Source: Bryobacteraceae bacterium
GTDB taxonomy: Bacteria > Acidobacteriota > Terriglobia > Bryobacterales > Bryobacteraceae
Assembly: GCA_036379475.1 (NCBI GenBank)
Contig: DASVGP010000206.1
Span: 9,860 to 73,859 of the forward strand
DNA length: 64,000 nucleotides
Direction of reading: 5' to 3'
Shown: piece after piece, positions 11,193 to 37,665 of the stretch
Numbering within the stretch: the stretch's first letter is position 1
Layout of the letters: each line of letters starts with the position of its first letter
Program-made: the position numbers and the translations under genes
The notes under the pieces: model-generated
Databases searched by the model: none
Told to the model about the DNA's origin: nothing
Seen by the model: only the letters and a program-made list of their open reading frames with translations

Positions 11193-11198
11193 CGTTCT

Positions 11199-15250: not shown

Positions 15251-15280
15251 AAATCGGGCGTAATGCGCGGCATACTGGAA

Positions 15281-20239: not shown

Positions 20240-21247
20240 AGTCATAATCGGAGCGCGCCCAGAAGCCGGGGGCACGCGCCGCCTTCCGCTCTGCTTCCCT
20301 CTCTTAGCGTGGCCGGAATTTCGAATACCGATATTGCGGTTGCGCATCTGCGCGGCCAAAATTCGAAGAAACGCTCGCGTCAGTAATGGTGACGATTCTT
20401 CCGTCATTTGCCGCAATAACGCACGCGGGTGCGCGGCAGCGGAAGCCTCCCTTTGACCCTTTAACCTGATCCTGAACATACCGTTGGAATCCTTCACGAG
20501 GCGTTCATCAGGGCTATGTTGCGTCAAGGAGGCTTCCGTTGGTATGACTGGCACGATGGTAGAGGAACCGGTTTTGGGGAAATGCCCTCATCTGGATCGG
20601 ATGGCGGCTTGAAGTCTCTGAGGTGGAATATCTTCCAGTGGTGATCCGGTCCGGCCACCGCAAGCATAAGTGCTAAGCAGTCGCGCAGCCCCTGAAAATA
20701 GGTGACCTCGATCCGGTGGCCGCCGCCTACCAGCTTTACGGCCGCGACCCAAGAGATACCGCTTACGAATAGAGAAGGGAGCAGAGAGCAAGCACCCGTT
20801 CGAGGCCCTTGCGGTGGTATCCAGGCGTGGCGTGTGATTCCGGTACTCAGGATGGAAGCGCCACGTGATCGCCTCCGTTTTGTCCTGGTCTCCTTTACCA
20901 CTTTGGATCTGGGAATTCCCTCGTATTCAGCGGGTGAGACCAGGTAGGTGGCTTGGGCGTCTATCACGAATCCACAAGGGATACAGTTCCGGGTTACAGC
21001 TTTCGAATTGCCACGGCGGCGGGATGATGAAGGCGCGCGGAGCTCGCGCTGTTTTGCTTCGATATGAGCGGCCACATTGCAAGGGACGGATCTCGCGCAA
21101 CTCCAAGCCGCGCTCCTCGCACCAAGCGAAGAATTGATATGCCGCTTGCAGATAACCGCTGCGCGCTTGCTCGCCTACTGCCGCGATGAGACCGGGAGCG
21201 GGAACGCTGCGTCCGCCCGTAAAGGGCACGATTCGGTGGGTTGCATT

Positions 21248-21594
21248 TTATGCACTCATAAAGAAAAGCTCCGGCATCGGAAAATGGTTGCGGTTATCGC
21301 TGACGAGTGTGAGTCCTTCGGTCAAGCAGACCGCGGCCACTGTTGTATCCGTCAAGGTAAGCTTCTGGCCCGGCGTGCCCAGGAGATCGGCACATAGGCG
21401 AGCTGCCGCAGGAGCGGTTCAGTTTTCTGAGCTTCCACGGCGCGCAGGCCGACATAGACTTCGGCCACATTGATGGCACAATAGGAAAGCGTATGCTGCT
21501 CGTCGAGAATCATGCGCTCCATGAGATCTGCGGGGCCCCGCCGGTCGTTTGAGACGTCGATGAGGAAGGTGGTATCGAGCAAGAGCTTCGGCAT
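21248..21594 (-). pseudogene. vapC: PIN-domain VapC toxin, frameshifted
   Basis: MPKLLLDTTFLIDVSND...CAINVAEVYVGL in one frame. The C-terminal part GQKLTLTDTTVAAVCLTEGLTLVSDNRNHFPMPELFFMSA lies in another frame, with the shift near 21365-21380. A TAATG junction links it to an upstream antitoxin-like tail (EEHPELQNGSEAFVERLRAENETRL). Confidence 0.75.
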
Positions 21595-21740
21595 TACCCA
21601 TCCGTGCGCGATTTCAGGCGCGTTTCGTTTTCGGCGCGCAAGCGCTCGACGAACGCTTCCGAGCCGTTTTGTAATTCCGGATGCTCTTCCGTTTTTCCAG
21701 CATCCTCGGGCTTCCTGAAGTGCCGCGAGCAGCTTGCGGC

Positions 21741-22301
21741 GTTGGAGTTCCGTCCAACGAGGTCAATCAGGCCGGTGTCGCGCTGTTGGATTCGCTCGAT
21801 CTCCAAGGCGGCGAGATCCTCGCGGCGCACGCCGCAGCCCACGAGCAACGCCAAAAGCGCGCGATCGCGCTTCCCTTTTAAGGTTTCTCTGTCCGGAAGC
21901 TCCAAGAGCCGCTCGGCCTGGTGCAAGGCGAGCCAGTTCCCTGCCCGGCGAGCGGTTTTCGTCGCTCATGCCGCCAAGGGGAACTGCAATTGCTGCGACC
22001 GGTCGGGGTGCTGCTCGGCCCAGAGGACCGCCAATAAGTCGGGGATCCATCTTCGGAGCGCCAGAAGGCAGTGGAGGCGGGCGTGGCAGCAGGCGCAAAC
22101 GACAATCAGCAGTTCGGGTCGGTTGATACCTGGCTGGCGATGATGAACATGCAATGGGCGGGAGGCCCCATTTTGGTTGTGGATGTAGAGTATTGGCTGC
22201 TGGCGTCCGCAATCGATTTGGGAAATCGCAGTCTTCAACTGGCTGCTGGCCCGCTGTGAACAGCGATAGCAAGTGCTCCGGCAGCACCAGACCAAGCGCA
22301 T
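21741..22301 (-). pseudogene. Remnants of a tyrosine recombinase (internal deletion, C-terminus lost) and an HNH gene (N-terminus lost)
   Basis: Collinear with 36750-37420 but lacks roughly 36925-37255 and everything downstream of the QQRD motif. Confidence 0.7.
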
Positions 22302-22440: not shown

Positions 22441-24957
22441 GTGCCGCGTGAAAGCGCACTGTATATAGAGCAGAGGAGTACGGGAGTGGACCGGTGGCAA
22501 GGAGTCGAGAGCTTCGGGCGGAATCTGAAGCAAACATTCCGAAGGCTCTGGAAGAGCCCTGGATTTACTGCAATTTCGGTGTTGATTTTGGCGCTTGGAA
22601 TTGGTTCCAGCGTAGCCGCGTTTCGTTTGCTCGATGCATTATTGTTCCGGCCGCTGCCGGTGGAGAAACCAGGGCAGTTAGTGCGTATTGATGCAATCGG
22701 ACGGATTGGAAAATTCGGAGGATTGCCTTCGACAATCGTGAATCCGCTAAAGGGCATTCCTGGATTTGCCGGTTTTTGCGGATACGGCGAGCATTCGTTC
22801 CCAGTGGAGATCAATAGAAATCTCCAGCAGCTGGGCGCATTCCTGGTCATGGGGGGGTGCTTCCATACGCTTGGCCTCCATGTGCAATTGGGCAGAGCGA
22901 TTGCTCCCGAAAACGATCATTGGGGGACCGAACCGGTTGCGGTGCTGACAGACTGGTTCTGGCACAGCGCCTACGATGGTCGCCCGGATGTTTTGGGAAA
23001 GCAGATCCGCATTAACAATCGCGCGTACACGATTATTGGCGTCGCTCAGAAGCAATTCTCTGGGCTGACTTTGGGTTTTCGAGCCGGTATTATCCTCCCG
23101 CTGCAACAAGAAGCGTCAGATCTTCCGGGCGGCCGCCGCCCTACGGTTTACCACCTAAATTTACTTGCCCGAAGATCCCCGAACGTTTCGGACCGGCAGC
23201 TTCAGATACGGGTCACCGCGAGTGAGCACCATCTGCTTGAAGCAAGCGTTCCCTCTTTCTACAGTCCTGAACAGCGGAAACAATACTTATCGAGTAAACT
23301 TGTCGTGACCTCGGCGCGGACGGGCATTGATTATTGGATCCGACATCGTTTTGGAAAACCGCTATACGCGACCTTCGGAATATGTGCCGCGATTTTGTTA
23401 ATCGGCTGGATGAATATAGTCAATCTCTTGCTGGCGCGGAACGTGTCGCGCCAGCAGGAGGTTGCGGTACGGCTTGCACTGGGAGCCACACGGCGAAGTC
23501 TGGCGGTTCTGCTGGGCCTGGAGGCTACGATTCTAACGCTGGCCGGAAGTGCCATCGGTGTTGCCATTGCGGTTTGGGTCGACCGACTTTTGCTGGCTGA
23601 ATTCGCTGCTCAGTTCAGGGTTCACTTATCTGCCGGGTTCGACCGAAGTGTTTTGTTCTTCCTTTTCATTGTGATTCTCGGGGCATTTCTTGCTTTTTGG
23701 GGGGCATGCGTTTGGCAGATTAATCGTCTATGCAAGGAGACCGTGCTAAACGAGAGCGGGCGCGGCGTTGTCCGAGGCAGCGCCCATGCACAGAAGATTT
23801 TGCTCGGTGGGCAGATTGCCGGCACGCTTGCCCTGGTAACGGTATGCAGTCTGTTTGCGGCCTCGCTCAAAAATCTGTACGATATCCACTTGGGGGTGCA
23901 TACACGCAATGTCTGGGAAGCCTCTCTATCGCCCAGGCCAGGCGGATATCGCGACATCCAACGAACCGCGTATTACACGGACCTTTTGAACCAGTTCCGC
24001 ACGGCCCCCGGAATCCTTTCCGCGAGCCTCTCTTCTTTCATCCCATACGAGTCGCCCGTATTCTGGGACTATGTAACCAATGTCGAGAATCCAATTCCCG
24101 GAAACAAGATTCCAGCGCGCGAAGTCTATGTGTCCGATGGCTTTCTTCGTACACTCGGCATGAAATTGATCGCCGGGCGGGATTTTCAACCCGGTCAGAG
24201 CCGCTCCGGCGAGCCTTCCGTAATCTTGAGCGAATCGTTGGCTCAACACCTCGGCGGCGTACAGGAAGTGTTGGGACACCACATAAGGCTGGGGGATAGA
24301 AAAGGGTACCAGAGGCTCCTCGTGGTTGGAGTGGCATCGAACGCACAACTAAGTCTCGCGGATCCAGACGATCACAAACCATTTCTCGTATATATAGATT
24401 TTTGGCAACATCCTCAAGTACAGGCTTACCCCACAATCACTTTGAAAACGGCGAGCTCCACTTTATCCGCAAACCTTGTGCGCCAGATTGTTCGCTCACG
24501 CGGCAGGGAATTCGTGGAAACATTCACCACTCTCAATTCAGAGAAAGACGGCGCCTTGACCGAGAACCTGCTACTCGCTTATCTTTCTAGCGGCCTTAGC
24601 GCGCTAGCATTATTCATGGCCGCGGCGGGATTGTTCGGCCTATTAAGCTATCAAGTGACCAGACGCACCAACGAGATTGGAGTTCGCATGGCTTTGGGAG
24701 CAGAACGCGCGCAGGTTCAATGGCTCATCTTACGGCAGGTTTTTGCTCTCGTTGTATTCGGATCTCTGGCAGGTATTGGGCTAAGTTTCGCCGTTGGCAG
24801 GACCATTGCAGGCCTTCTCTACGGGGTAGGCCCGAACAATCTATGGATTCTCAGCTTGTCAGTTGCAATTTTGATTGCAACCGCACTCTGTGCGGCATGG
24901 ATTCCAGCGAGGCGTGCCTCTTCTGTGAATCCCTTGGTTGCATTACGACACCAATGA
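22441..24957 (+). CDS. ADOP-type duplicated MacB/FtsX-like ABC permease
   Basis: 838 aa. N-terminus LKQTFRRLWKSPGFTAISVLILALGIGSSVAAF is typical of MacB-like permeases. Two FtsX-type 4-TM modules, each preceded by a large periplasmic domain. No adjacent ATPase gene. Confidence 0.85.
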   Translation: MPRESALYIEQRSTGVDRWQGVESFGRNLKQTFRRLWKSPGFTAISVLILALGIGSSVAAFRLLDALLFRPLPVEKPGQLVRIDAIGRIGKFGGLPSTIVNPLKGIPGFAGFCGYGEHSFPVEINRNLQQLGAFLVMGGCFHTLGLHVQLGRAIAPENDHWGTEPVAVLTDWFWHSAYDGRPDVLGKQIRINNRAYTIIGVAQKQFSGLTLGFRAGIILPLQQEASDLPGGRRPTVYHLNLLARRSPNVSDRQLQIRVTASEHHLLEASVPSFYSPEQRKQYLSSKLVVTSARTGIDYWIRHRFGKPLYATFGICAAILLIGWMNIVNLLLARNVSRQQEVAVRLALGATRRSLAVLLGLEATILTLAGSAIGVAIAVWVDRLLLAEFAAQFRVHLSAGFDRSVLFFLFIVILGAFLAFWGACVWQINRLCKETVLNESGRGVVRGSAHAQKILLGGQIAGTLALVTVCSLFAASLKNLYDIHLGVHTRNVWEASLSPRPGGYRDIQRTAYYTDLLNQFRTAPGILSASLSSFIPYESPVFWDYVTNVENPIPGNKIPAREVYVSDGFLRTLGMKLIAGRDFQPGQSRSGEPSVILSESLAQHLGGVQEVLGHHIRLGDRKGYQRLLVVGVASNAQLSLADPDDHKPFLVYIDFWQHPQVQAYPTITLKTASSTLSANLVRQIVRSRGREFVETFTTLNSEKDGALTENLLLAYLSSGLSALALFMAAAGLFGLLSYQVTRRTNEIGVRMALGAERAQVQWLILRQVFALVVFGSLAGIGLSFAVGRTIAGLLYGVGPNNLWILSLSVAILIATALCAAWIPARRASSVNPLVALRHQ

Positions 24958-25380: not shown

Positions 25381-27021
25381 TTGTCTGCTGTGCTGTTTGA
25401 TGGAGTTCCTCGTTCCTTAGAAACAGCGAAAGACGCTCACCCATCTTCTGTCCGCATTTTTGGCAACTCCATTTTCGTCAATCAGTTGCTCATAGCGTTT
25501 CTCACGTATGGAACCGCAGATCATTATTACTTTTTTATACGAGATCCTAGCTGTGATGTGGTGCGCACTAAGGAACAACTTGGGCTTCCTACACGAGCGG
25601 AGCTCCTGACGCCTATTACCGTGATGGACCTCCCAGCTACGGCTGCTACCACATTTGTCACACCTCGTGCGTTTCCACAAAACTTGTCGGTTCTTCGTAA
25701 ACTACTGAGCCCTAGCTCAGCCATCGTCTCGTTTATTCATGCGTTAAGCGATATCTTGGCATGTGATTTGTGTGTATACTTACTATCTTTGGGGGCTTTG
25801 CGGGGAGATGCAGTGGTTTGTTCTTCACATGCGGGCAAAATAGCATTACAGCGCTTATTGTTGGAAACGGCCATCTCCTTAGGAGTAGTGCCCCACCAAG
25901 CCGATGCAATCTTTTCTCGTTTTATGTTCCCGGTAATTCCATTAGGGTTACATTGTGACCGCTATCGGTGCGATCAGCTCGAAGCACGCTTGCAATTAGG
26001 CATCCGCAAGGACGACATTGTTATATTGTCATTCGGCAGACTGAGCCCGTTTGCAAAAGCAGATCCAGTGCCGTTGCTGTTAGCGTTTCGCGAATTACTG
26101 GCCATCACCGATCGCAGGCTGATGCTTCTGATAGCTGGAGATGACACACGACATCAAATGGCAGATAAACTGCGAGACTATGCTAGCAGTCTCGGCTGTC
26201 ACGAAAGTGTAGCGGTGTATCCTGATGTGTCGCTATCGACGAAACGTGCTCTATATGGAGCCGCAGATATTTTTGTTTCTTTAAGTGATCACATACAGGA
26301 AACATTTGGCATAGCTCTCATGGAAGCAATGGCATCTAGATTACCTGTCGTGGCTGCGGACTGGAGTGGCCATCGTGACATTGTTCAGCAGGGAATTACG
26401 GGGTACTTGATACCAACATATTGGGTTGACCTGGGAGACGAGTTGGAGCTACTTCGCGGCCCACTGGAAATGGAGGGTCGCAATAGTTATTTGTCGGCGG
26501 CAACGGTCGTTGACATGGAGACACTGATAGACCGCCTAAAGAGGCTAATAAATAATGCGGCTCTAAGACAAGAAATGGGGGCATCTGGTTATAGACGAGC
26601 TGTAGAAACATACGATTGGCGGCGCGTGGTGCCGCGTTACGAGGAACTCTTTAACGGGCTCAAAGAAGCCATCGCTTCAGATACTCCAAATAGACGGGGA
26701 CTGCACGGAGGACCGCATTCGTACAAAACACAGCAGATATTTTCCAGCTATCCTACTGGATGCCTGGACGACAATGCTCCGCTAGTATTAACGTCACTTG
26801 GCAGACGGTGGCTATGTGCACCATTTCCTCTAAACGTCATTTCTGAACACAGCGCCGACTTGCATATCTGCAGGTCTATTTTGTCCGTACTTCACACCGA
26901 TCCTGAAGGATCGAGCTCCGTTGAGACCCTTGGGCGTTATTTTAATCAAGTGTTTCCCAGGTTTGTTATACGTTCGACAGTCGGCCGGCTAATTAAATAT
27001 GGACTGCTGTCCAAGAAGTGA
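25381..27021 (+). CDS. Glycosyltransferase, GT-B fold (GT1/GT4), with ~110-aa C-terminal extension
   Basis: ETFGIALMEAMASRLPVVAADWSGHRDIVQQGITGYLIP signature. TTG start per the ORF track. The tail ends in a winged-helix-like ...VETLGRYF...VGRLIKYGLLSKK. Confidence 0.8.
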   Translation: MSAVLFDGVPRSLETAKDAHPSSVRIFGNSIFVNQLLIAFLTYGTADHYYFFIRDPSCDVVRTKEQLGLPTRAELLTPITVMDLPATAATTFVTPRAFPQNLSVLRKLLSPSSAIVSFIHALSDILACDLCVYLLSLGALRGDAVVCSSHAGKIALQRLLLETAISLGVVPHQADAIFSRFMFPVIPLGLHCDRYRCDQLEARLQLGIRKDDIVILSFGRLSPFAKADPVPLLLAFRELLAITDRRLMLLIAGDDTRHQMADKLRDYASSLGCHESVAVYPDVSLSTKRALYGAADIFVSLSDHIQETFGIALMEAMASRLPVVAADWSGHRDIVQQGITGYLIPTYWVDLGDELELLRGPLEMEGRNSYLSAATVVDMETLIDRLKRLINNAALRQEMGASGYRRAVETYDWRRVVPRYEELFNGLKEAIASDTPNRRGLHGGPHSYKTQQIFSSYPTGCLDDNAPLVLTSLGRRWLCAPFPLNVISEHSADLHICRSILSVLHTDPEGSSSVETLGRYFNQVFPRFVIRSTVGRLIKYGLLSKK

Positions 27022-27039: not shown

Positions 27040-27380
27040 AACTTGTCCTCGTCTGCACGATCGCGCCATATGGGATGATTCGGCAGATCTGATTGCGGGG
27101 AGCGCTTTCGCCGGACCACATTCAACATGCTGCTGGCAACGCCCCCGATCCTGGCGCCGGCCAAACTGGCCCAGTACATCAAAGGAAGTTCCTCGCGGCA
27201 TCTGCAAGTCGAGTTTCCGAGCTGCGCAATCAATACTGGGGATCAGCACATGTGGGCGCGAGGATACTTCTGCGCACCGGTGGCGCGGTGGACGAAGCGA
27301 CGATTAAGCCTATATAGCGAAAACCAGAGGGGGATGAAGACGATGACGCTTTCAAGCTCACCGCGCCGACCAAAGCCTTG
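27040..27380 (+). pseudogene. tnpA: IS200/IS605-family TnpA (Y1 transposase) remnant, truncated and frameshifted
   Basis: PAKLAQYIKGSSSRHLQVEFPS...GDQHMWARGYFC continues in another frame as GGAVDEATIKP. The N-terminal HUH region is absent. Confidence 0.7.
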
Positions 27381-28095
27381 AGCCGGCTCTCAGCCGGGGA
27401 AAACCTCGGGCGGCTTAAACCCGTTACGCGAGTTCAGTCGGCTGCGGGGCCGGCTACGGATGCTTCGTCAAGGCACCTGTGCGGCGGTTTTGGAGCGAAA
27501 GTGTGGTCTCGATCAAAAACAGGCACTTGAGGCGCCAAAGAGTGGGAAAGCTGCTGCAGGTGGGGAAGGAACGTTCGAGCCGAAAGCCACAATGCGATTT
27601 CCTCGACTCATCGGCGGGACCGATACGGGTGTATGGAAGCTAACGGCGGCGCACTTTCGTGGCGGGAGTGATTCCGGAGGGAAAACGCTCTGGCCTTGCC
27701 AAATCAGCCTCGGCGACAATCGAGAAACCCCGGCGAGCGAGTCACTCCGCTCCTCCGTTCCCCGCGCTTCCGAACGGCAGCGCATTTTCTCCGTTCTTTT
27801 TTGCTCACTAACGAGAAATCTCGGTTTATTTTCCGTCTTTAGTGTGATACAATCAGGCCGCGACAAGAGTCGCTATAGCTCACGAAGAAGCCTGCGGCCA
27901 CCGTTGCAGGGCCTTTCCTGAGCATATTGCTTCTTTCTATTTGAGGAGAGCTTGACGATGTTTCGTTGGCACCGAATTTACCTCAAAGCGTATTGGAAAT
28001 GCGCTGCACACACCAATTTATTGATTGGCTGTACAGCGCGCATCCGTGGCACCTTCTAATGTCAGTTAGCACTTTCGAAAGGAGAACAATCAACA

Positions 28096-28260
28096 ATGGC
28101 GGAAAAAGAAGAAAACGAACAAGAAAATAAAATCCTGGACTTCGAGTTCGAAGAATTGGAACAGCGTATCGCTCCCTCGATTCTATCATCGTGCAGTAAC
28201 TGCAGTGGCTGCAGCGGTTGTGCCAATGGTGGGTGCTCCGGGTGCGAGAGCTGCAGTTAA
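28096..28260 (+). CDS. Putative RiPP precursor peptide, 54 aa: acidic leader plus 22-residue core with 7 Cys
   Basis: Not in the ORF track because it is under 60 aa. ATG at 28096, GGAG at 28081-28084, stop at 28258-28260. Translation: MAEKEENEQENKILDFEFEELEQRIAPSILSSCSNCSGCSGCANGGCSGCESCS. Lies 68 nt upstream of the DUF692 gene on the same strand. Confidence 0.75.
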   Translation: MAEKEENEQENKILDFEFEELEQRIAPSILSSCSNCSGCSGCANGGCSGCESCS

Positions 28261-28271
28261 ACACACAGTTA

Positions 28272-28301
28272 CCCGGCCGCCGCTTTTAATGAGCGGCCGG
28301 G
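28272..28301 (+). terminator. Perfect 9-bp GC stem-loop between the precursor ORF and the MNIO gene (attenuator/stabiliser candidate)
   Basis: CCCGGCCGC (28272-28280), 12-nt loop, GCGGCCGGG (28293-28301). No clear U-tract follows. Confidence 0.45.
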
Positions 28302-28328
28302 CTACATTTCTAAGCGGATTATCCCGAT

Positions 28329-29165
28329 ATGTACAGCAATCTGCCGCAACTCGGCGTTGGGTTGGGCTACAGAATGCCTCTTCACAATGACCTACTAGCA
28401 AACAGGCATACTTTTGATTTCTTGGAACTGATTAACGACCAGTTTATTTTTTCTCCGCTCGACAAGCAAGAGCAAATATTGAGAGACCTGCGATCCATTC
28501 CCCTTGTTGCTCACGGGGTTGCCATGTCCGTGGGCACTGCCCAACCTCTCGACCAAGACTATTTGCAAGCAACAGTTGCCTTTGTGGATCATATACGCGC
28601 CCCCTGGTTTAGTGATCACCTCTGCTTCACTAAAACCGATCTCGCTGACCTAGGCCAGTTAACGCCTGTCTGGTTTACCGAAGAAACCCTTGCACAGGTC
28701 ATTAGCAATGTTATGGCGATCAAACGTGCATGTCCGGCCGTTCCCTTTTTACTCGAGAACATTACATATTACTTTCCACTACCAGGCTCGGAGATGACCG
28801 AGGCAGAGTTCATATCCCGCGTCCTCGTGGAGGCAGACTGTGGTCTATTGTTGGACGTCAATAACGTTTTCATCAATTCACAGAATTTAGGGTTCGATCC
28901 GTATGACTTCTTGACGGCGATACCACTGGAGCGGGTTGTTCAAGTCCATATCGCTGGCCACAAAGAAACACCAGGCCTAATTATCGATACTCATGACAGG
29001 CCAATGACAAAAGATGTTTGGGACATACTATCATTCGTAGTGGCTCGTGCCCCTGTTAAGGCAGTATCATTAGAATGGGATTCAAGTTATCCGGCCTTTT
29101 CCGTCATCGAGCACGAATTGGCTTGCGCACGATCGCTCTACTCGCATGCATCCCCATGTCTTTGA
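28329..29165 (+). CDS. DUF692 / MNIO (multinuclear non-heme iron oxidase, MbnB/TglH/BufB-like)
   Basis: 278 aa TIM-barrel-like. LGVGLGYR...FDFLELI...PLVAHGVAMSVGT...APWFSDHLCF...FLLENITYY...LLLDVNNVFINS...VVQVHIAGH matches the conserved DUF692 blocks as I remember them. Confidence 0.8.
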   Translation: MYSNLPQLGVGLGYRMPLHNDLLANRHTFDFLELINDQFIFSPLDKQEQILRDLRSIPLVAHGVAMSVGTAQPLDQDYLQATVAFVDHIRAPWFSDHLCFTKTDLADLGQLTPVWFTEETLAQVISNVMAIKRACPAVPFLLENITYYFPLPGSEMTEAEFISRVLVEADCGLLLDVNNVFINSQNLGFDPYDFLTAIPLERVVQVHIAGHKETPGLIIDTHDRPMTKDVWDILSFVVARAPVKAVSLEWDSSYPAFSVIEHELACARSLYSHASPCL

Positions 29166-30007
29166 TCGAAATGCAACGCGCCCTTAGCGTTATTTTGACG
29201 TCACCCGGCGTGCGACACGAATACCAGCGCGACCCCGACTTCGCCCTGCGACAATTTTCCCTCACTGAGCGCGAACGCACAACGTTGGCCGCCTTGGACA
29301 GCGGACGCCTACAGCGTTACTCTGCCATGCTTATCGCTGGTAGGCTTGAGTTGGCGTTGAAGGCCCTCCCCGTAACACGCCTGTTACTCCCAGCAGACTT
29401 TACAATGAAGTTTGGAGAGCTTTACAGCCGAGACTATCCACCCGTGATCCTCGCCGGATCGGCGATGTTGCATGAGGTCCATAGCATTCGACAATTCATT
29501 ACTGACCTCACACAAAGCCAGGTGTTAAACGATCCTTACCTTTGTAACGTCGTCCGCTTCGAAGCGTCGGTCTTTCACCTCACCAACGACATAGAGGCCT
29601 TTTCTGCGGCAACGCGCTGTCACCAGGAGCTAGTAACTCCAGTTACTGACACCACTCGCCCTTTACTAGAACGGCATGTCTTAATATGCACCTTTGACTC
29701 CGACATATTGGCGATACTGAATGCACTTCGGCATGGGCGGAGGCCAGAAGAACATCTGTTATCCTCTACCACCATTCTACTGCTACGGCGAAATGTAGAT
29801 ACGCCGGCAGTCTCCATAATTCGACTCAATGAGGCATCCCGTGAGCTACTACAGAAGTGTGACGGAGCGACGGATATACGCGAGCTAAGTCGTTTGTATT
29901 CTGATCGCATCGTTGATGTGCTCGATCGGTTTGTGCAGTCGCATATCATCGCGATGCTTGCGGCGGAAGAAGCTCTGCCGACGGCTGCCCTCTCAACAGG
30001 TATTTAA
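29156..30007 (+). CDS. MNIO partner protein (DUF2063/MbnC-like N-region) with PqqD-like RRE C-terminus
   Basis: ATG at 29156 overlaps the MNIO stop by 10 nt. N-terminus is MSLIEMQRAL.... C-terminus ILLLRRNVDTPAVSIIRLNEASRELLQKCDGATDIRELS...VLDRFVQSHII fits a PqqD-like pattern. Confidence 0.6.
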   Translation: MSLIEMQRALSVILTSPGVRHEYQRDPDFALRQFSLTERERTTLAALDSGRLQRYSAMLIAGRLELALKALPVTRLLLPADFTMKFGELYSRDYPPVILAGSAMLHEVHSIRQFITDLTQSQVLNDPYLCNVVRFEASVFHLTNDIEAFSAATRCHQELVTPVTDTTRPLLERHVLICTFDSDILAILNALRHGRRPEEHLLSSTTILLLRRNVDTPAVSIIRLNEASRELLQKCDGATDIRELSRLYSDRIVDVLDRFVQSHIIAMLAAEEALPTAALSTGI

Positions 30008-30012
30008 CAGCG

Positions 30013-31800
30013 ATGTGTGGAATAGCAGGAGCGATTGGTCTGGGGCGCGATCGCACCTTGACACGGACAATGATCGATGCCTTGCACCATCGAGGCCCGG
30101 ACGGTGCGGCAATATGCTCCACAACTCTTGCAGATTTAGGCGCTTGTCGGTTAAGCATTATCGACCTCACCGCTGGCCCACAACCTATTTGCAATGAGGC
30201 TGGAACACTGTGGATTGCTTTCAACGGCGAGATCTATAATTTTCGTGAACTACGTCAGATGCTTCTTTTCCGAGGGCATAGATTCTCTACCCAGACCGAT
30301 ACAGAAGTAGTTCTTCATTTGTACGAGGAATTCGGTCCAGCAGGCGTGGAGAAACTCCGGGGAATGTACGCGTTTGCGATTGCCGATGACACATCCGTAT
30401 TCTTGTGCCGTGACCGGGTCGGCATAAAGCCCTTATATCTATGTACACTGAAGAACTCCAGTGTAGTTTTTGCCTCGGAAATAAAAGCTCTGCTGCAATC
30501 GCCAGACGTCAGCACAAGTATTAACTATCGGGCTCTCGCAGATAAACTCGTCTTAGGGCATCCATGCAGTACAGACACGATGTTTCAGGACATCTCGCTG
30601 CTCCCTCCGGGAACATACCTAGAAATACGGCGCAACAATGATGGCCTGGCCATTACAAGTACTTGCTACTATTCGCTTAATCTGGCCCCGAATAACTCGC
30701 GTGATGATTGTATCTGCACGGTGGCACCGATCGTGGCTAGCCTGCTGGAGGAGGCTGTTGCCTCTCATCTTGTCTCTGACGTGCCAATTAGCGTATGTCT
30801 CTCGGGCGGCCTGGATTCTAGCATCCTTGGTGCATACACGAGTCGTCAGAAGGCCGCCGCTGTCTCCACTTTCTCGATCAGCGACACCGTAACCAACCCC
30901 GATGTGACGTTGGCAAGGCGAAGCGCCAAGATCATCGGCGCTGTACATTACGAATATATCATGAGTTTTGAGGAGTTTCTTGCCGCCATTCCTGGGTGTG
31001 TAACGGCTAGTGAAACGTGGACTAGTCTATTCGCTCTGCCATTTTACATTTTATGTCAGAAGATGTCCAAGCTTACAAAGGTGTGTCTAAACGGTGAGGG
31101 TGCAGACGAGTTGTTTGGTGGTTACCCAGCCTTTCTCGCCCCTCCTTCGGCACGACTACAGCGCCTGGCGCTGGGGCTAGAGCGTGTACAGCGGCTTGGT
31201 GTTCATCCAAGTCAGCGGGCACAGCAGTTAATCGAACAATGCCAGTCCGCCCAAACACTCGCAGCATCGGCGGCAGCATCCTTTGAGTATCACTTGACCG
31301 ATCAGCTAACCAATTTTCACCTAAATGTAATTGATAAATACTCAATGGCGGCCAGTATTGAGATGCGGGTGCCATATCTGGACCAGCCACTAATTGATTA
31401 TGTAGCTAGACTGCCGGCGGCGGTTCGGTGTAATTATGTTATGGGGATCACCAAGCATGTGTTGAAACGAGTCGCTCTTCGGTTTGTACCAGAAGTTCCA
31501 GTTGATGCAATACTCAGAAAGAAGGAGGGCCTACCCAGTGCTGGCTTATTGTGCCATAGAAAACTGACCCAATTGTGTGCCACGGCTCCTGACGAGTACG
31601 TTGATAGGCATGAGTTTAGATCGTGGGTTGCGAATGATAACGACGTTAGCAGTAACAAACGAGACCTTTTACTATTTGACGCCTTTCGCTATATATTCTG
31701 TGTCCATCGCGGCGTTCCTCCTCGAGGCCTTAGCTTCCACGATCTGCTCCAACAATGGCGACCTAAACCGGGTGACGCGCAGCCAGCCGTCACACCATAG
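30013..31800 (+). CDS. Asparagine synthetase B-like glutamine amidotransferase
   Basis: N-terminal nucleophile MCGIAG (class II GATase) and PP-loop LSGGLDSS. Confidence 0.85.
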   Translation: MCGIAGAIGLGRDRTLTRTMIDALHHRGPDGAAICSTTLADLGACRLSIIDLTAGPQPICNEAGTLWIAFNGEIYNFRELRQMLLFRGHRFSTQTDTEVVLHLYEEFGPAGVEKLRGMYAFAIADDTSVFLCRDRVGIKPLYLCTLKNSSVVFASEIKALLQSPDVSTSINYRALADKLVLGHPCSTDTMFQDISLLPPGTYLEIRRNNDGLAITSTCYYSLNLAPNNSRDDCICTVAPIVASLLEEAVASHLVSDVPISVCLSGGLDSSILGAYTSRQKAAAVSTFSISDTVTNPDVTLARRSAKIIGAVHYEYIMSFEEFLAAIPGCVTASETWTSLFALPFYILCQKMSKLTKVCLNGEGADELFGGYPAFLAPPSARLQRLALGLERVQRLGVHPSQRAQQLIEQCQSAQTLAASAAASFEYHLTDQLTNFHLNVIDKYSMAASIEMRVPYLDQPLIDYVARLPAAVRCNYVMGITKHVLKRVALRFVPEVPVDAILRKKEGLPSAGLLCHRKLTQLCATAPDEYVDRHEFRSWVANDNDVSSNKRDLLLFDAFRYIFCVHRGVPPRGLSFHDLLQQWRPKPGDAQPAVTP

Positions 31801-32086
31801 GATGCTGTGTTTGGAACCTGATCCCTCGCAACTTCGCCCCTCACTGCCGCACGCAAGTGGAGTTCGCTTTTCTATGGTTCCGAACATGTACCGGCGGTTA
31901 CGCGGAGGGCAACTTGGCAGCTCGTGAGGGAGGCTAAATGTCTAGAACTGTCGCAGCCCATCTCGCCAAGGCCTCAACAGCGCGCTGCTGAGGTCTTCGG
32001 TGAGAAGCCGGGCTGTGGCTACGGAAGCGGACCACAACCTACGCTGAGGCTGGGGACTGCACAAGGTCAGAAGGGAAAGCGAGCTT

Positions 32087-34096
32087 ATGCGTATTTGCTT
32101 CGTATCTAAATATCCTCCGATTGAAGGGGGGGTGAGTATGCAAGCCTACTGGATTGCATATGGATTAGCAATGCGAGGGCATACTATAGATGTGGTCACG
32201 AACGGTGCTGAGGTAGAAAGATCATTTCGAATGGCCATTCAGCCCTCTGATCATAGCTTCCTTCAACCTACGTTTCCGGAAAGTGGTGGGCGGGTGAGGA
32301 TGATTAGTAGCGCCGCTGAACCAGCGGCTAAGGTAGCTCACATTCCTGCTTCCAATCCTTTTGTCACCAAATTGGCATCGTTGGCTTTGGACACTATCCG
32401 AGGTGGGAACCATGAAGCACTGTATTGCAGTTACTTCGAGCCATACGGTGTTGCTGGGCACCTAGCTTCAGTGTGGAGCGAAGTGCCGTACGTTTTGGAG
32501 CACGCTGGCAGCGATATAGATCGATTGATGCTGCGACCGGGATTGGCCAGCTCGTATTTGCAAATAATTACGGCAGCAGACGCCGTTATTACGCGGAGAG
32601 GATTATTAGAGCGCTTTCTGCGAATGATGGTGAGGCCTGATAGGTTGCATGTCGACGTACCATTCGCGGTTCCGCCACTCTTTTCTCCAAGAGAACCAGC
32701 ACTCGACATCAACAGTCTAGCGCAGAGCCTCTCAGAGACTGACGTCTCCCATATTCCATCTGAATTGCGACCGGCCGCAAAGACGTTTGATCCAGGCTTA
32801 CCCACCATTGGAATATATGGAAAAGTCGGTGAGGCCAAAGGATCCTTCGATTTGCTTGGTGCGTTGAGGGACCTAAAACAGCAAGGCCTGAAGTTTAATC
32901 TTCTTGCAATGATAAACGGTTGGAGTGCAGCTCGCTTTTTTGCACGAGTAGTTGAGAGTGACCTATCGGAGGTCACCTGGGTCCTTCCGTTCCTTCCACA
33001 CTGGCGCGTTCCAAGCTTCATACGAGCCTGTACTGCGGTCTGTTTTTTAGAACGAGGTTTTCAGATCGGAATCCATGGGCCTAGGGTTCCGCGAGAAGTG
33101 CTGGCGTGCGGCACCTGTCTCATTTTGTCGCAAGAGATTGCGGCCAAGCAATTCTACGCGGAACAGATTGTAGATGGAAGCAACATGGTGCTCATCCAGG
33201 ATCCGCGCGAACGCGTAGATCTCGCGAATAAGCTTCGACTGGTTGTTGACAATCCAGAGTTTGCGAGGAAGGTAGGATTGGAGGCCGCTACGGTCTCGAA
33301 AAACATCGAGCACTTCGACTCGGCCATCGATGGTTACGAACGCGTGTTTTGGGACACCATGGGCAAGTCGCGCCACGATTCTTTAGGTAAGCGTTATTCA
33401 GCCCAGGTGTCACCCGGCACAGCCGCACGCCTCAATTCTGAAACCTGCATTAACGCACTTTTGCCTTCAGCCTCCCAGCTCATGGCTAAGTACCATTTAT
33501 CGCTGGCCGCGGCAGCCGAAGCTGAGGCGAGCCCGTTGGCTGCTGCCCGCGGAGTGCTGGATGCGCTCACCGCTCACATCCAAAACGAGCCCGAACCGAC
33601 GCGTTCAGCTCTCGCAGACCTCCTTCGCTATGAAAGTGCTCCGCTACTAATGGCACAGCAGCGGCTGCTTAAGGGTGCGCTGCCGTGGTTCAATACGCCC
33701 GATTCGCTGCTTGATGGTGATATTACACGCGGTGGAGCACTTCACCAGGACCTTCGGCCGGTACTCTCCAACTACTGCATCGTATTAGAACTGCAGTATT
33801 CTCCTGAGGATACGCGGGAACTTCTGAGTAATAATGCTCATCTCCTCACAGCCGCTCCAATGACACTGCTTGTCATACTGCGACCCAACTTTTCCACTGT
33901 CGTTTTGAAAGTGTCCGCACTCACGCTGGAGGTCATACGGCTCGCCGACGGCTTCAGGACGATTAGAGATATCGAGAGCTGCTTAGCTAGACAACAGCGG
34001 TTTCAGAAGACAGAAGAACACAGCGCCTCTCTCTGCGAGCTGCTAGTTCGCCTCAGGAGCAAAGAGATTTTGGTGTTGTCTAGTAGCCCCAGGTGA
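32087..34096 (+). CDS. GT-B glycosyltransferase (GT1/GT4) fused to a ~240-aa C-terminal region ending in a PqqD-like RRE
   Basis: N-terminus MRICFVSKYPPIEGGVSMQAYWIAYGLAMRGHTIDVV is typical of GT4. The C-terminus TLLVILRPNFSTVVLKVSALTLEVIRLADGFRTIRDIES...LCELLVRLRSKEILVL parallels the MNIO partner's tail. Confidence 0.7.
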   Translation: MRICFVSKYPPIEGGVSMQAYWIAYGLAMRGHTIDVVTNGAEVERSFRMAIQPSDHSFLQPTFPESGGRVRMISSAAEPAAKVAHIPASNPFVTKLASLALDTIRGGNHEALYCSYFEPYGVAGHLASVWSEVPYVLEHAGSDIDRLMLRPGLASSYLQIITAADAVITRRGLLERFLRMMVRPDRLHVDVPFAVPPLFSPREPALDINSLAQSLSETDVSHIPSELRPAAKTFDPGLPTIGIYGKVGEAKGSFDLLGALRDLKQQGLKFNLLAMINGWSAARFFARVVESDLSEVTWVLPFLPHWRVPSFIRACTAVCFLERGFQIGIHGPRVPREVLACGTCLILSQEIAAKQFYAEQIVDGSNMVLIQDPRERVDLANKLRLVVDNPEFARKVGLEAATVSKNIEHFDSAIDGYERVFWDTMGKSRHDSLGKRYSAQVSPGTAARLNSETCINALLPSASQLMAKYHLSLAAAAEAEASPLAAARGVLDALTAHIQNEPEPTRSALADLLRYESAPLLMAQQRLLKGALPWFNTPDSLLDGDITRGGALHQDLRPVLSNYCIVLELQYSPEDTRELLSNNAHLLTAAPMTLLVILRPNFSTVVLKVSALTLEVIRLADGFRTIRDIESCLARQQRFQKTEEHSASLCELLVRLRSKEILVLSSSPR

Positions 34097-34109
34097 GCGA
34101 GGTGTAAAA

Positions 34110-35348
34110 ATGCCGACCGTGGATCACCACAACCAGCTATCGCTAATTGGCGGCGCTTCTGAATGTGTACGGGGAGACATTGAGGTCGTGCCGCAAACCA
34201 TAGGCACCACTATACGCTACGTGGTAGTAGATCCAAAGGCACAACGCTATTTTGTTTTACCAGCTGAGGATTACTACGTCTTTAGTCTTTTGGATGGTAA
34301 CCACTCTCTTGAAGACATCAGTGGCAGGCTAAAGCTCGATTATGGTCTTGCGGCCTCGCTAGCCACCATAGAGCGTTTTATACTTCGTTTGCGAGCGGCG
34401 GGATTGCTTCTCACTGCTCCGGAGCCATCACGCAGGCCGCGCCCATATGAACTGCTCAATAAGGTGCTGTATTTGCGAGTAAAAGCGATTAACCCCGATC
34501 GCTTGCTGACATTTATTCTTCCGTACGTTAAGATGTTATTTACTCCTCTATTTGTAATCGTTGCTTGCATCCTTATTGCATCAGCTAGTGGTCTCATAGT
34601 CACACACAAATCTAAGTTGTATAGTGATATGAGGGTAGTAGTTAAAAGCGGGTTGATTGTATGGTTATGGCTGCCTAGTTTGGTAGCCGCAGCATTACAC
34701 GAGTGCGCTCACGGATGCACTTGTAAATATTGGGGTTGTCGTGTCAAGGAAATGGGGCTGCTATTAATTTATTTTTGCCCTGCCCTGTACTGCGATGTGA
34801 CCGATGCATGGCGATTGGCTGACAAGAAGCCTAGACTGTTGATTATGGTTGCCGGCGGATTGTTCGAGGCATTCATATGGGCCGTGGCGGTTCACCTATG
34901 GATACTCGCGTCTAACCCACATATACAACTGGTGCTTACGCTTGTAATTATGGCATCCGGGGCAGTGTTGCTACTAAATTTTAATCCACTGATAAAGCTC
35001 GACGGATACTATATCCTAAGTGATCTACTAGACATACCGAATCTGCGCTCGAGGTCGCTACGGTTCACTGCGCGCACCGTTAAGGCCGTTCTGTGCCGGA
35101 AAGCGATTCCACGTGCTGCCATGAAGGAACGGATAGCCTATTTAGGATATGCCGGTTTTGCAGTGCCATTTTCAGCGTATTTCCTGTGTGCTGGTACGGA
35201 TAGACTTATACATACGATGCTTCATACCAAAAATACGTGGGCGTTTGGCGTGTCAGCCATATTTATGACGTTATTCATAAGTAAACTCGCAATTACCATT
35301 GCCGAACACATCGCGAGGAAGCGTTCTAAGCAGCAGGCGCGTGCGTGA
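34110..35348 (+). CDS. Membrane M50 (site-2 protease family) zinc metalloprotease with N-terminal PqqD-like domain
   Basis: HExxH (LHECAHG) in a TM helix and LLNFNPLIKLDGYY (NxxPxxxxDG). The N-terminal YVVVDPKAQRYFVLPAEDYYVFSLLDGNHSLEDISGRL...FILRLRAAGLL is RRE-like. Confidence 0.8.
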   Translation: MPTVDHHNQLSLIGGASECVRGDIEVVPQTIGTTIRYVVVDPKAQRYFVLPAEDYYVFSLLDGNHSLEDISGRLKLDYGLAASLATIERFILRLRAAGLLLTAPEPSRRPRPYELLNKVLYLRVKAINPDRLLTFILPYVKMLFTPLFVIVACILIASASGLIVTHKSKLYSDMRVVVKSGLIVWLWLPSLVAAALHECAHGCTCKYWGCRVKEMGLLLIYFCPALYCDVTDAWRLADKKPRLLIMVAGGLFEAFIWAVAVHLWILASNPHIQLVLTLVIMASGAVLLLNFNPLIKLDGYYILSDLLDIPNLRSRSLRFTARTVKAVLCRKAIPRAAMKERIAYLGYAGFAVPFSAYFLCAGTDRLIHTMLHTKNTWAFGVSAIFMTLFISKLAITIAEHIARKRSKQQARA

Positions 35349-36313: not shown

Positions 36314-37276
36314 CTACTGCCGGGAGTTTTTTGTCCGCTCTCCGCTCGCGATCCGAATGCCCAGGTGGTCGCAGGGCGCATCGTTGAGATCCTGCCGCAC
36401 TCCCAAATACCTTTCCGTCGTTTGTATAGAAGCATGCCCCAAGGAAAGTTGGATCTGTTCGAGCGGCGCCCGACCTTTGTGGGCGAGTTTCGCAAACGTG
36501 CGCCGCACGTCGTGGGGCGCGATCGCCGCCCCGATCTTTTCTCCGTAGAAATTCACCACCTCGTAGACCGCCTGTGCGCCGAGCCCCTGGCGCACGAGGC
36601 GCCCGCCTTTGTTCACCGCGCCGAGCAACGGCCCGTTTTGGAATCCGGCCGCCGCGAGCCACTCGTCTACCGCGGTTTTGGCCCACGCCGGCATGGGCAC
36701 GGTGCGGATGCGATTGCCCTTGCCCGCGAGATCGACCAGGCACCAGCGCCCGTCGCGCTGCTGGATGGCTTCGATTTCTAACGCGGCGAGTTCCTCGCGG
36801 CGCACGCCGCAGCCTACGAGCAGCGCCAGCAGCGCGCGGTCGCGCTTTCCTTTTAGCGTTTTTCCATCCGGCAGATCCAAAAGCCGCTCGGCCTGGTCCA
36901 AGGTGAGCCAGTTCCCTGCCCGGACGCCGTGCCGCTTGGCTCCTTTCACGCGCGCGATCGCCGCCGCGGTTTCGGGCGGAAGGAAACCGTTGTCGGCCGC
37001 CTCGGCCGCCAGCTTTTTGAGCGCGCTCAAGCGGACATTAATCGAGGAGGCGGCGAGGCCGACCGTTTCCTGGGCCGTGCGCCAGGCCTGCACGGTGGCT
37101 TTGGTGAAGCCGGGCGGCCCGCTTTGCGCGCACCAGACGCGGAAGCTTTCCAATGCCTGGTCGTAAGCGCGTTTCGAGTGCGCGGAGGAGACGCTATCGA
37201 GCACGAGCTGCTTCAGACGGCCCCAAAGCTCTTCGTTTGCCGTGCGCGCGAGCGCTGTCTGGTTTCCTTCGCTCAT
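36314..37276 (-). CDS. Tyrosine recombinase/integrase
   Basis: Start taken at MSEGNQ (ATG at 37276). Catalytic signature VGCGVRREEL (R), HDVRRTF (HxxR), LGHASIQTTERYL (H...Y). Confidence 0.88.
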   Translation of the reverse strand: MSEGNQTALARTANEELWGRLKQLVLDSVSSAHSKRAYDQALESFRVWCAQSGPPGFTKATVQAWRTAQETVGLAASSINVRLSALKKLAAEAADNGFLPPETAAAIARVKGAKRHGVRAGNWLTLDQAERLLDLPDGKTLKGKRDRALLALLVGCGVRREELAALEIEAIQQRDGRWCLVDLAGKGNRIRTVPMPAWAKTAVDEWLAAAGFQNGPLLGAVNKGGRLVRQGLGAQAVYEVVNFYGEKIGAAIAPHDVRRTFAKLAHKGRAPLEQIQLSLGHASIQTTERYLGVRQDLNDAPCDHLGIRIASGERTKNSRQ

Positions 37277-37665
37277 GCGGCCAACGGAAACTGCAACTGC
37301 AGAGGGCGGCCGGGATGCTGCTCGGCCCACAACTCTGCCAGCAATGGCAGGATCCATCTGCGAATAGCCAGAAGACGGTGGAGGCGTGCGTGGCAGCAGG
37401 CGCAGACGGTGATCAGCATCTCGGGTCTGTTGAGACCGGGCTGCCGGTGATGCACGTGCAACCGCTCGACCGAGCCGCAGGCGCGGCACCGATGGCCGTC
37501 GCGATCAAGAATTTCCTCTCGCAATCCGGAAAACCGGGCGCGGGAGTCGGCGAGGGCGCGGTAGCACGGGCGGCAGAGTCCGCCGATGGCGGGAAGGGCT
37601 CTGCCGCAGGGGCAAAAGAGCGGCCGTTGGGTAGGGAGACAGCGACGACGGGGCAAAAGTTCCAA
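37273..37665 (-). CDS. HNH-motif zinc-finger nuclease-like protein, translationally coupled to the integrase
   Basis: CPCG...CRPC, DGHRCRACGS, LHVHHRQPG...NRPEMLITVCACCHARLH. Its stop overlaps the integrase ATG (ATGA at 37273-37276). Confidence 0.75.
   Translation of the reverse strand: MELLPRRRCLPTQRPLFCPCGRALPAIGGLCRPCYRALADSRARFSGLREEILDRDGHRCRACGSVERLHVHHRQPGLNRPEMLITVCACCHARLHRLLAIRRWILPLLAELWAEQHPGRPLQLQFPLAA

Follow-up and report, generated by a model that had tools for sequence, protein, structure and literature searches.

Which product is made by a compact set of six same-strand genes in a Bryobacteraceae bacterium, and do the encoded enzymes act on one substrate? The genes lie at 28096-35348 of a 64,000-nt stretch of contig DASVGP010000206.1 (the window), and a sequence-only reading had taken them for an operon that makes a ribosomally synthesised and post-translationally modified peptide (RiPP). 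The genes very probably form a genuine, conserved RiPP cluster with a Cys-rich precursor, an MNIO (DUF692) oxidase and its partner protein, an AsnB-like amidotransferase, a glycosyltransferase and an M50-type protease. The most distinctive feature of the cluster is that the glycosyltransferase, of the GT-B fold, is fused to a duplicated MNIO-partner module.

Gene content of the cluster

All six genes are on the plus strand. They encode the precursor (28096-28260, 54 aa), the MNIO oxidase (28329-29165, 278 aa), the partner (29156-30007, 283 aa), the AsnB-like glutamine-dependent amidotransferase (30013-31800, 595 aa), the glycosyltransferase (32087-34096, 669 aa; hereafter GT-RRE, for its fused RiPP recognition element, RRE) and the M50-type metalloprotease (34110-35348, 412 aa). 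The intergenic spacings from precursor to protease are 68, -10, 5, 286 and 13 nt, the negative value being an overlap of the MNIO and partner genes. The coordinates, gaps and 10-nt overlap first reported for these open reading frames (ORFs) were all found as described. The partner start was placed at 29156 and not at the first in-frame start, 29075, because M1 and Q7 are invariant across an alignment of 15 family members. Pfam and NCBIfam profile searches with each ORF supported the domain calls for the MNIO, AsnB, glycosyltransferase and M50 proteins.

Conservation across genomes

This combination of genes turns up repeatedly in unrelated genomes and metagenomes, so the arrangement is not due to chance. 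An MNIO search with one genome per species recovered the full or near-full set in an Acidobacteria metagenome-assembled genome (locus L002), an Acidobacteriaceae metagenome-assembled genome (L019), Spongiactinospora (L001) and Nonomuraea purpurea (L031). The precursor, MNIO, partner, AsnB, GT-RRE and M50 genes are all present in L002, L084 and L085, which come from Acidobacteriota or soil metagenomes. GT-RRE, MNIO, partner and AsnB genes are found together in Micromonospora (L081/L082), another Nonomuraea (L172), L001 and L123. A Cys-rich precursor accompanies them in L081/L082, L172 and L123 and was not found in L001; L081/L082 and L172 also carry two ABC exporters. L085 has the gene set of the window in the same order, including a second glycosyltransferase upstream, with a permease gene inserted between AsnB and GT-RRE. 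Neighbourhood analysis had been proposed as a check on the sequence-only reading, and it found the genes conserved together in relatives from two phyla, Acidobacteriota and Actinomycetota.

The linkage was also counted from the MNIO and from the glycosyltransferase. Eight of the fetched loci have an MNIO with 53% or more identity to that of the window, and every one of them carries both the glycosyltransferase and AsnB genes. A metagenome search with a profile of the glycosyltransferase gave at least 534 confirmed matches, and of the 16 loci so seeded that extend 3 kb or more to each side of the glycosyltransferase gene, 15 have an MNIO and 10 an AsnB. The nearest MNIO neighbour agreed in glycosyltransferase linkage for 41 of 42 linked and 45 of 45 unlinked loci, these two samples having been seeded differently. 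Glycosyltransferase linkage thus tracks MNIO relatedness. An identical copy of the window MNIO protein is encoded on 15 or more contigs, which come from several sequencing runs. The glycosyltransferase family itself comprises 538 clusters (50% identity) at E <= 1e-30, and the majority have 600-720 aa. Matches in the plasmid database were distant (27-41% identity, mostly over the catalytic domain only, with a Bacillus homologue annotated at about 680 aa), and two plasmid neighbourhoods of such matches (H1 and H3) had no annotated MNIO nearby.

Precursor peptide

The precursor core, SILSSCSNCSGCSGCANGGCSGCESCS, holds seven Cys in the spacing C-x2-C-x2-C-x2-C-x4-C-x2-C-x2-C. The leader, about residues 1-27, is acidic and carries F-E-x-E-E-L-E-Q-x-I-A-P; the position of the leader/core boundary is predicted. 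Neither a signal peptide nor a hydrophobic segment was found in the precursor. The core combines CxxC repeats with small residues, and DUF2282, EGKCG and Cys-Lys motifs are not present. NCBIfam release 20 contains no model for the precursor or the partner.

Precursors beside related MNIOs have in common the leader F-E-x-E-E-L(-E-Q-K-I-A-P) and CxxC repeats. Alignment of nine precursors shows the leader Phe/Glu and three of the Cys to be invariant. The L085 precursor has the same Cys spacing as that of the window, and the L002 precursor, found by tblastn, is 48% identical to it. More distant glycosyltransferase-linked clusters have other multi-Cys cores, for example CxCxC runs or SCSGCHGCSGCSM. 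The C-termini of the precursors vary, with ESCS, AATA, VDGD, MEN and GDEV among them, and Asp and Glu are absent altogether from the L085 and L172 cores.

A prolyl-hydroxylase-type 2-oxoglutarate-Fe(II) oxygenase is encoded after AsnB in L002 (10991-11791) and L083 (14255-14983) and before the glycosyltransferase in L084 (about 9031-9738), and the cores of these three loci share a conserved Pro in an xPGC context (LPGC, QPGC and KPGC). The window and L085 are without the oxygenase and without the core Pro; they have a second glycosyltransferase and more Ser instead. These pairings are suggestive of accessory enzymes that vary with the core sequence, the oxygenase going with Pro and the second glycosyltransferase with Ser. 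Against this pairing, an Actinokineospora core has Pro and no oxygenase was called there. The 286-nt gap between the AsnB and GT-RRE genes of the window holds no remnant of such an oxygenase.

MNIO oxidase

The assignment of 28329-29165 to DUF692, on which the sequence-only reading had staked itself, was borne out by a PF05114 match of 270.6 bits (cut-off 25) over profile positions 1-261 of 263. In an alignment of 237 relatives, ten residues recur in at least 97% of the sequences: H62, H97, E143, D176, N179, H207, D220, H222, E249 and D251. The first nine of these we take to be iron ligands, going by the published MbnB and TglH structures, and the D-x-H third-iron motif is present as D220-x-H222. 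The catalytic Asp of FonB, D249, corresponds to D251 of this MNIO (PMC13097082).

The protein scored below every named NCBIfam equivalog cut-off, with scores of 227 against 310 for BufB (NF050167), 213 against 360 for HvfB (NF003818), 155 against 400 for ApyH, 45 against 600 for ChrH and 38 against 325 for MbnB. Its nearest solved structures are 3BWW (137 bits), TglH (97) and MbnB (46). The nearest glycosyltransferase-free MNIOs among the fetched loci (L009, L025 and L037) are 39-45% identical and are accompanied by true DUF2063/NGO1945_C partners. L037 in addition has a signal-peptide precursor with KCGK repeats, a combination that is the captophorin pattern (PMC13097082). Since these relatives have such partners, and one of them a captophorin-like precursor, the window MNIO reads as an offshoot of, or a sister to, the 5-thiooxazole-forming group, with a diverged partner and a leader-peptide substrate. 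Because the best matches are BufB, HvfB and 3BWW, the glycosyltransferase-free neighbours are captophorin-like and the catalytic Asp D251 is conserved, 5-thiooxazole is the product we would name, at an even chance.

Partner protein and leader-recognition modules

The sequence-only reading had described a partner coupled to the MNIO and had looked to PF09836 (DUF2063) for its identity. The coupling part stood: the gene follows the MNIO gene directly, with the 10-nt overlap, and the protein carries a predicted RRE. The DUF2063 part fell, because no PF09836 match was obtained for the partner, nor for any of 15 family members at E <= 0.1; it is therefore not a type-1 partner. Five of the 15 family members matched PqqD (best E 4e-7) and one matched NGO1945_C, and the family profile matched the PqqD structures 5SXY and 5VRD at residues 221-275 (E 0.014-0.017). 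ApyI was the only named model that the partner touched, at a weak 22 bits. Word-indexed protein searches, whether with the partner alone or with a 15-sequence profile, found nothing beyond the query. The partner alone gave no relative among solved structures, and its profile gave weak matches to PqqD and NHLP/LigA. A single-sequence AlphaFold2 (AF2) model was unusable (pLDDT 38). The protein is best read as a partner of the signature-less kind described as PME-type 2 (PMC12452194), with a predicted helical N-terminal part and a predicted C-terminal PqqD-like RRE.

The N-terminus of the partner (29156-29330, residues about 8-59) weakly resembles leader-type domains of the NHLP, LigA and 'Frankia_peptide' kinds. 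PF14407 was matched in 7 of the 15 family members (best E 2.8e-5), and the PDB entries for SonA and LigA at E of about 0.03-0.09.

Two other proteins of the operon resemble the partner. The C-terminal stretch of about 240 aa of GT-RRE aligned with the partner family at an hhalign probability of 99.8% (E 6.6e-29, 212 columns), and the motif IN-x2-T-x2-LL-x-LCDG-x-RT is common to the partner and this C-terminus, which is a paralogue of the partner. Residues 45-111 of the M50 protease aligned with the partner RRE (probability 87%, E 4e-6), and its residues 37-100 gave a sub-threshold Pfam PqqD match (19.2 against 23.4). Since the GT-RRE C-terminus matches the partner and the M50 N-terminus its RRE, three operon proteins carry related predicted leader-binding modules.

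Glycosyltransferases

The catalytic part of GT-RRE (32087-33370, plus strand; PF00534 and PF13579) is GT-B, GT4-like and of the retaining-type fold, and scored 36.4 bits against PF00534 (cut-off 26.4). The partner-like leader-binding module follows at 33437-34096 (plus strand). An AF2 model built on 39 relatives (pLDDT 90.5, pTM 0.90) showed the GT-B fold, a disordered linker at residues 428-446, helices at 451-528, a strand-strand-helix-helix-helix unit at 592-658 and a strand at 662-665; pLDDT in the C-terminal module was mostly 86-96. The fused module is thus predicted to be a helical bundle with a winged-helix RRE. The best Foldseek matches were BshA (6D9T; E 1.4e-15, TM 0.80 normalised to the target), MshA and GlgM. 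Residues G14, G15, K251, G252, E322 and E337 are invariant or nearly so among the 39 relatives, and the Glu pair E322/E337 is spaced E-x14-E, not the usual E-x7-E. The early proposal of a GT-B/RRE fusion was supported by the profile alignment to the partner family and by the AF2 and Foldseek results.

A second GT4 glycosyltransferase is encoded upstream of the precursor (25381-27021, plus strand, 546 aa; PF00534 91.6 bits, PF13692 72.5 bits). It has the canonical E-x7-E motif at residue 307, and L085 holds a full-length, 42%-identical orthologue at the same position upstream of its precursor. Its C-terminal tail of about 110 aa was considered as a further RRE and rejected, with a probability of 0.4% to the partner/RRE profile and no Pfam domain. 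The peptide itself is probably glycosylated.

AsnB-like amidotransferase

The assignment of 30013-31800 to an AsnB-type amidotransferase held, with matches to TIGR01536 (398 bits, cut-off 267), PF00733 (188 bits) and GATase_7 (142 bits). Two motifs are intact: the N-terminal MCGIAG, which holds the glutaminase nucleophile Cys2, and, at residue 264, the PP-loop SGGLDS. Membership of the AsnB family tells nothing about which carboxylate is the substrate. Because Cys2 and SGGLDS are intact and the L085 and L172 cores, having no Asp or Glu, leave only the C-terminal carboxylate, we lean slightly towards C-terminal amidation or nitrile formation, by analogy with known enzymes. TsrC, ScdTA and PesC are asparagine-synthetase-like (AS-like) precedents that act on peptide C-termini, PesC proceeding to the nitrile, and about 300 uncharacterised AS-like enzymes are associated with RiPP clusters (PMC13060819).

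The lasso-cyclase model NF033535 scored 175 bits against a cut-off of 525. With this score and with no transglutaminase-like gene within 22-36 kb, a lasso peptide was rejected.

Membrane protease, permease and cluster boundaries

The M50 protein passed PF02163 (30.6 bits, cut-off 27.2) and contains several hydrophobic segments along with the motifs HECAH (residue 197) and NFNPLIKLDG (residue 290). It matched the daptide protease model NF041824 over residues 38-393 at 186 bits (cut-off 300). The suggestion that this protease could remove the leader is supported by the daptide match, the intact HExxH and NPxxxLDG motifs and the RRE-like N-terminus, and the protein is probably an RRE-fused intramembrane leader peptidase.

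Further upstream, 22441-24957 (plus strand) encodes a duplicated FtsX/MacB-type permease of the ADOP family, with two MacB_PCD and two FtsX domains and a TIGR03434 score of 596 bits (cut-off 622). The permease gene inserted between AsnB and GT-RRE in L085 (6817-9255, 633 bits) is a homologue, and another homologue adjoins the cluster of L083 (16490-18952). The ADOP permease of the window is the probable exporter, and these occurrences hint that some ADOP permeases export modified peptides. No ABC ATPase gene was seen adjacent to it in the window.

Because the second GT4 gene and the ADOP gene are both conserved in L085, the cluster probably extends upstream to include them. The six genes of the sequence-only reading are therefore as it gave them, but the start of the cluster probably lies further upstream. 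The spacer between the second GT4 gene and the precursor gene is 1.07 kb long in the window and about 250 nt in L085. A C-terminal fragment of an IS200-type Y1 transposase sits in the window spacer (27127-27381, plus strand; PF01797 37 bits, profile positions 55-121 of 121).

Candidate expression signals were found around the precursor gene. A strong Shine-Dalgarno sequence read from the DNA, AAAGGAG (28078-28084, plus strand), lies 11 nt upstream of the ATG. A GC-rich hairpin directly 3' of the stop codon (28272-28301, plus strand; dG -23.4 kcal/mol, z -2.6) has no clear T-tract, and strong hairpins occur at the equivalent position in L002, L083, L084 and L085. It may be a partial terminator, an attenuator or a transcript-stabilising element that sets the precursor-to-enzyme ratio. 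Sigma-70-like promoter matches were at chance level (9 against 9.3 expected), so no promoter is proposed, and scanning the window for Rfam families and tRNAs gave no match.

A second same-strand cargo set lies at 14187-20239, with a sulfotransferase-like gene (14187-14873), a GT4 gene (15917-16963), a PhpK-like B12-binding radical SAM gene (17911-19377, 106 bits) and a GT2 gene (19328-20239). These 14-20 kb genes were considered as cluster members and rejected, since they are not conserved with the cluster in relatives; they may belong to a separate pathway.

Proposed pathway

The genes present, their domain assignments, the intactness of the catalytic motifs, the kinship of the recognition modules and the conservation in two phyla are observations; chemistry, order of steps, leader cleavage site and role are proposals built on them. 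The 54-aa precursor would be made in the cytoplasm, and its acidic leader (FExEELEQxIAP) would be bound by the PqqD-type modules of the partner, the GT-RRE C-terminus and the M50 N-terminus. The MNIO and partner would then oxidise Cys residues of the CxxC-repeat core, most likely to 5-thiooxazole. The AsnB-like enzyme, using glutamine, would adenylate and amidate a carboxylate, most likely the C-terminal one, and a nitrile could follow. One or two GT4 enzymes would attach sugar to the core, with Ser (O-linked), Cys (S-linked) or the thiooxazole sulfur (S-linked) as candidate acceptors. The M50-type protease would cut off the leader at the membrane, and the ADOP/MacB-type permease, or the ABC exporters in actinomycetes, would export the product. 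A functional leader-dependent RiPP cluster of an uncharacterised family, working along this pathway, is the reading that we favour with some confidence.

Several points weigh against it. The MNIO falls under the curated cut-off of every named MNIO equivalog, the outcome of MNIO reactions is currently unpredictable from sequence (PMC13060819), and the cluster departs from 5-thiooxazole systems in its type of partner, its leader and the cytoplasmic location. The AsnB-like protein has no recognisable RRE by which to find the peptide, and the sugar donor and acceptor are not deducible from the sequence. The IS200 fragment and the differences in gene order from L085 indicate that the locus is rearranged, which could affect expression of the upstream glycosyltransferase and permease genes. 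The source is a metagenome-assembled genome. Finally, a metallophore role is argued by analogy and from two neighbouring genes: a TonB-dependent-receptor-like outer-membrane protein gene that adjoins the L002 cluster (11839-14898) and a multicopper oxidase gene that adjoins the L172 Nonomuraea cluster (1697-3811), both weak hints of a metal-related role. That the product is a thiol- or heterocycle-rich metal-binding peptide, as in the related copper-binding systems, falls a little short of an even bet.

Alternative readings

The same biosynthesis could yield an antimicrobial or signalling peptide that does not bind metal, a rival of some weight that we nevertheless doubt. A cytoplasmic leader-dependent design, dedicated exporters and conjugative carriage are traits of bacteriocin-like RiPPs, and the window cluster is without copper-homeostasis genes (DoxX, sigma/anti-sigma factors). 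The seven-Cys CxxC core and the kinship of the MNIO with captophorin enzymes nonetheless point to metal binding, as do the genes adjoining L002 and L172, and no immunity gene is evident.

Somewhat less probable, and on balance unlikely, is the same cluster with a different MNIO chemistry on Cys, namely an oxazolone-thioamide as in methanobactin, beta-carbon excision as by TglH, or a new CxxC crosslink or heterocycle. The equivalog scores below cut-off, the unpredictable outcomes of MNIOs (PMC13060819) and TglH as a clear structural relative (97 bits) would all allow it, and the partner is of type 2, like TglI, ApyI and PbsC, not DUF2063 (PMC12452194). The best matches of the enzyme are, however, the 5-thiooxazole formers BufB, HvfB and 3BWW (227, 213 and 137 bits), with MbnB at 38-46 bits, and the nearest glycosyltransferase-free relatives are PME1/captophorin-like.

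A reaction of the AsnB-like enzyme other than C-terminal amidation is improbable. It could form a macrolactam, lasso-like or head-to-side-chain, or amidate an Asp/Glu side chain; the lasso-cyclase superfamily match (NF033535) and the acidic residue that most cores carry near the C-terminus (ESCS, VDGD, MEN, GDEV) fit this, but Cys2 is intact, TIGR01536 is passed, the lasso score falls far short of the cut-off of that model, there is no lasso B-protein and the L085 and L172 cores offer no Asp or Glu. It is very improbable that the glycosyltransferases and AsnB serve envelope or exopolysaccharide synthesis as chance neighbours of a minimal precursor-MNIO-partner unit, as weak matches to glycosyltransferase and amidotransferase models of exopolysaccharide and PEP-CTERM systems and the further glycosyltransferase genes at 15917-16963 and 19328-20239 might suggest, because GT-RRE holds a partner/RRE paralogue, glycosyltransferase, AsnB and MNIO genes are linked across phyla in differing orders, and the upstream GT4, GT2 and radical SAM genes are not conserved in relatives.

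Within the preferred leader-dependent pathway, a more specific and speculative version, which we consider unlikely, can be drawn. The BshA/MshA-like GT-B enzyme, recruited by the duplicated partner domain, would S-glycosylate a sulfur that the MNIO creates or exposes (a Cys or the 5-thiooxazole thiolate). The result would be a poly-heterocyclic peptide with S-linked sugar and an amidated C-terminus, and ADOP permeases would be its dedicated exporters in Acidobacteriota. If true, this would be a new RiPP class with a scaffold without precedent.

Comparison with known systems

The closest characterised MNIOs are those of bufferins and captophorins (BufABC, HvfABC and FonABC), which are 5-thiooxazole copper-binding RiPPs. 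They likewise have a Cys-rich substrate, the order precursor-MNIO-partner and conserved metal ligands and catalytic Asp. They differ in having a DUF2063 type-1 partner, a Sec signal peptide and DUF2282, EGKCG or Cys-Lys motifs, whereas the window has a type-2 partner and an acidic leader, adds the AsnB, GT-B and RRE-protease enzymes and does not reach the MNIO equivalog score. Aminopyruvatide (ApyH/ApyI) and TglH/TglI systems resemble the window in their signature-less helical and RRE partner and in a cytoplasmic leader-dependent substrate. ApyH and TglH, however, act on a C-terminal Asp or an appended Cys with other accessory enzymes, whereas the window has a multi-Cys core and its MNIO scores 155 of the 400 bits set for ApyH.

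Nitrilobacillins (PesH/PesI with PesC) are the one RiPP pathway described so far in which an MNIO and partner likewise go with a glutamine-dependent AS-like enzyme that acts on the peptide (PMC13060819). In that pathway PesH, which is without the HxD Fe3 motif, hydroxylates Asp, the precursors end in R(V/T)DN and there is no glycosyltransferase (PMC13060819). The nitrilobacillin clusters, which are confined to relatives of Bacillus, further contain the pseudo-MNIO PesX, an M16 peptidase and an alpha-ketoglutarate-HExxH enzyme, and none of these genes is in the window. Membership in the nitrilotides was rejected for the window cluster, given precursor C-termini without R(V/T)DN, no second MNIO-like gene and the presence of D220-x-H222.

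The remaining enzymes each have partial counterparts. TsrC and ScdTA belong to the AsnB superfamily and activate a carboxylate on a peptide with ATP, a likeness drawn by description and not by sequence. Lasso cyclases are of the same superfamily, but here the lasso model fails and the glutaminase domain is intact. Glycocin-type, SunS-like enzymes and RRE-fused GT2 enzymes likewise direct a glycosyltransferase to a ribosomal peptide, and RRE fusions to GT2-type (PF00535) glycosyltransferases are a bioinformatic precedent (PMC12710340). They have a GT-A/GT2 fold and a bare RRE, whereas the window enzyme has a GT-B/GT4 fold and a full MNIO-partner paralogue. Daptide MpaP-type proteases are built alike, an RRE-like N-terminus preceding a multi-pass membrane protease with HExxH/NPxxxLDG, but the window has no aminotransferase, oxidoreductase and methyltransferase set, and its protease is below the 300-bit cut-off.

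The combination of enzymes had been put forward as undescribed. For the MNIO with an AsnB-like enzyme this has to be withdrawn, as nitrilobacillins are one 2026 precedent (PMC13060819), while the fuller combination with GT-B and M50 proteins is undescribed in the literature covered. Full-text literature, mostly without subscription journals, gave no description of this cluster family, so that 'undescribed' is provisional, and the MNIO landscape survey with its supplements (PMC12452194) makes no mention of glycosyl, asparagine synthase or M50. The enzyme combination is without a characterised counterpart, and its product is probably a new natural-product scaffold.

Conjugative-element context

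The window is part of a conjugative plasmid or an integrative conjugative element. It encodes a VirB4-like protein (30-2279), TrbL/VirB6 (5324-6523), VirB8 (6534-7304), a VirB11-type ATPase (7315-8379), a coupling protein (9261-11192), a TrwC relaxase (11199-13901), ParA (43523-44470) and a weakly RepA-like protein (45543-47087). The GC content is 0.511 at 28096-35348, against 0.61 in the transfer module (1-13901) and 0.568 in the whole window, and the lower-GC cargo spans about 14-36 kb. The earlier description of an AT-richer island on a conjugative element therefore agrees with the GC values, the type IV secretion genes and the relaxase. Mobility of the cluster, which that description had also proposed, is plausible from the conjugative element, the low GC and the flanking recombinase with its degraded copy, but no recent transfer is documented because the MNIO of the nearest relative is only 59% identical.

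A tyrosine recombinase gene (36314-37489, minus strand; PF00589 77 bits) flanks the module as mobile-element context and is not biosynthetic. A degraded direct copy of part of the recombinase region is found upstream of the permease gene (21777-22154 against 36752-37461, 78-85% identical, with an internal deletion). With the intact copy downstream of the M50 and DUF6904 genes, the module is bracketed. Remnant ORFs at 21594-21926, 21966-22301 and 20927-21229 (all minus strand) resemble the HNH-like ORF at 37273-37665 and the DUF6904 gene. The remnants and intact copies around the ADOP-to-DUF6904 module suggest a cassette-like acquisition.

Other features of the element were also noted. A tandem repeat of about 65 nt (83% identical) at 45269-45400, about 150 nt upstream of the RepA-like gene, may represent iterons or an origin. 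Two copies of a 57-nt sequence in direct orientation, 93% identical, lie 7.2 kb apart at 47158-47214 and 54342-54398. In the 1718-aa product of the gene at 47528-52684, an N6-DNA methylase (Eco57I-like) is fused to an SNF2/DEAD helicase; such methylase-helicase fusions are typical anti-restriction or defence cargo of conjugative elements.

Implications

More than 14,000 MNIO enzymes exist and a handful have been characterised. The clade described here offers a cytoplasmic, leader-dependent, Cys-rich substrate together with three more tailoring activities, and new peptide chemistry is likely for this reason. An MNIO partner that was duplicated and fused to a GT-B enzyme to deliver the same leader peptide is an unusual evolutionary solution. 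Since the cluster occurs in culturable Micromonospora, Nonomuraea and Spongiactinospora, these proposals are directly testable. Furthermore, the conjugative carriage and the embedded ADOP permease provide a possible handle on how the cluster spreads and on the role of a large orphan permease family of Acidobacteriota.

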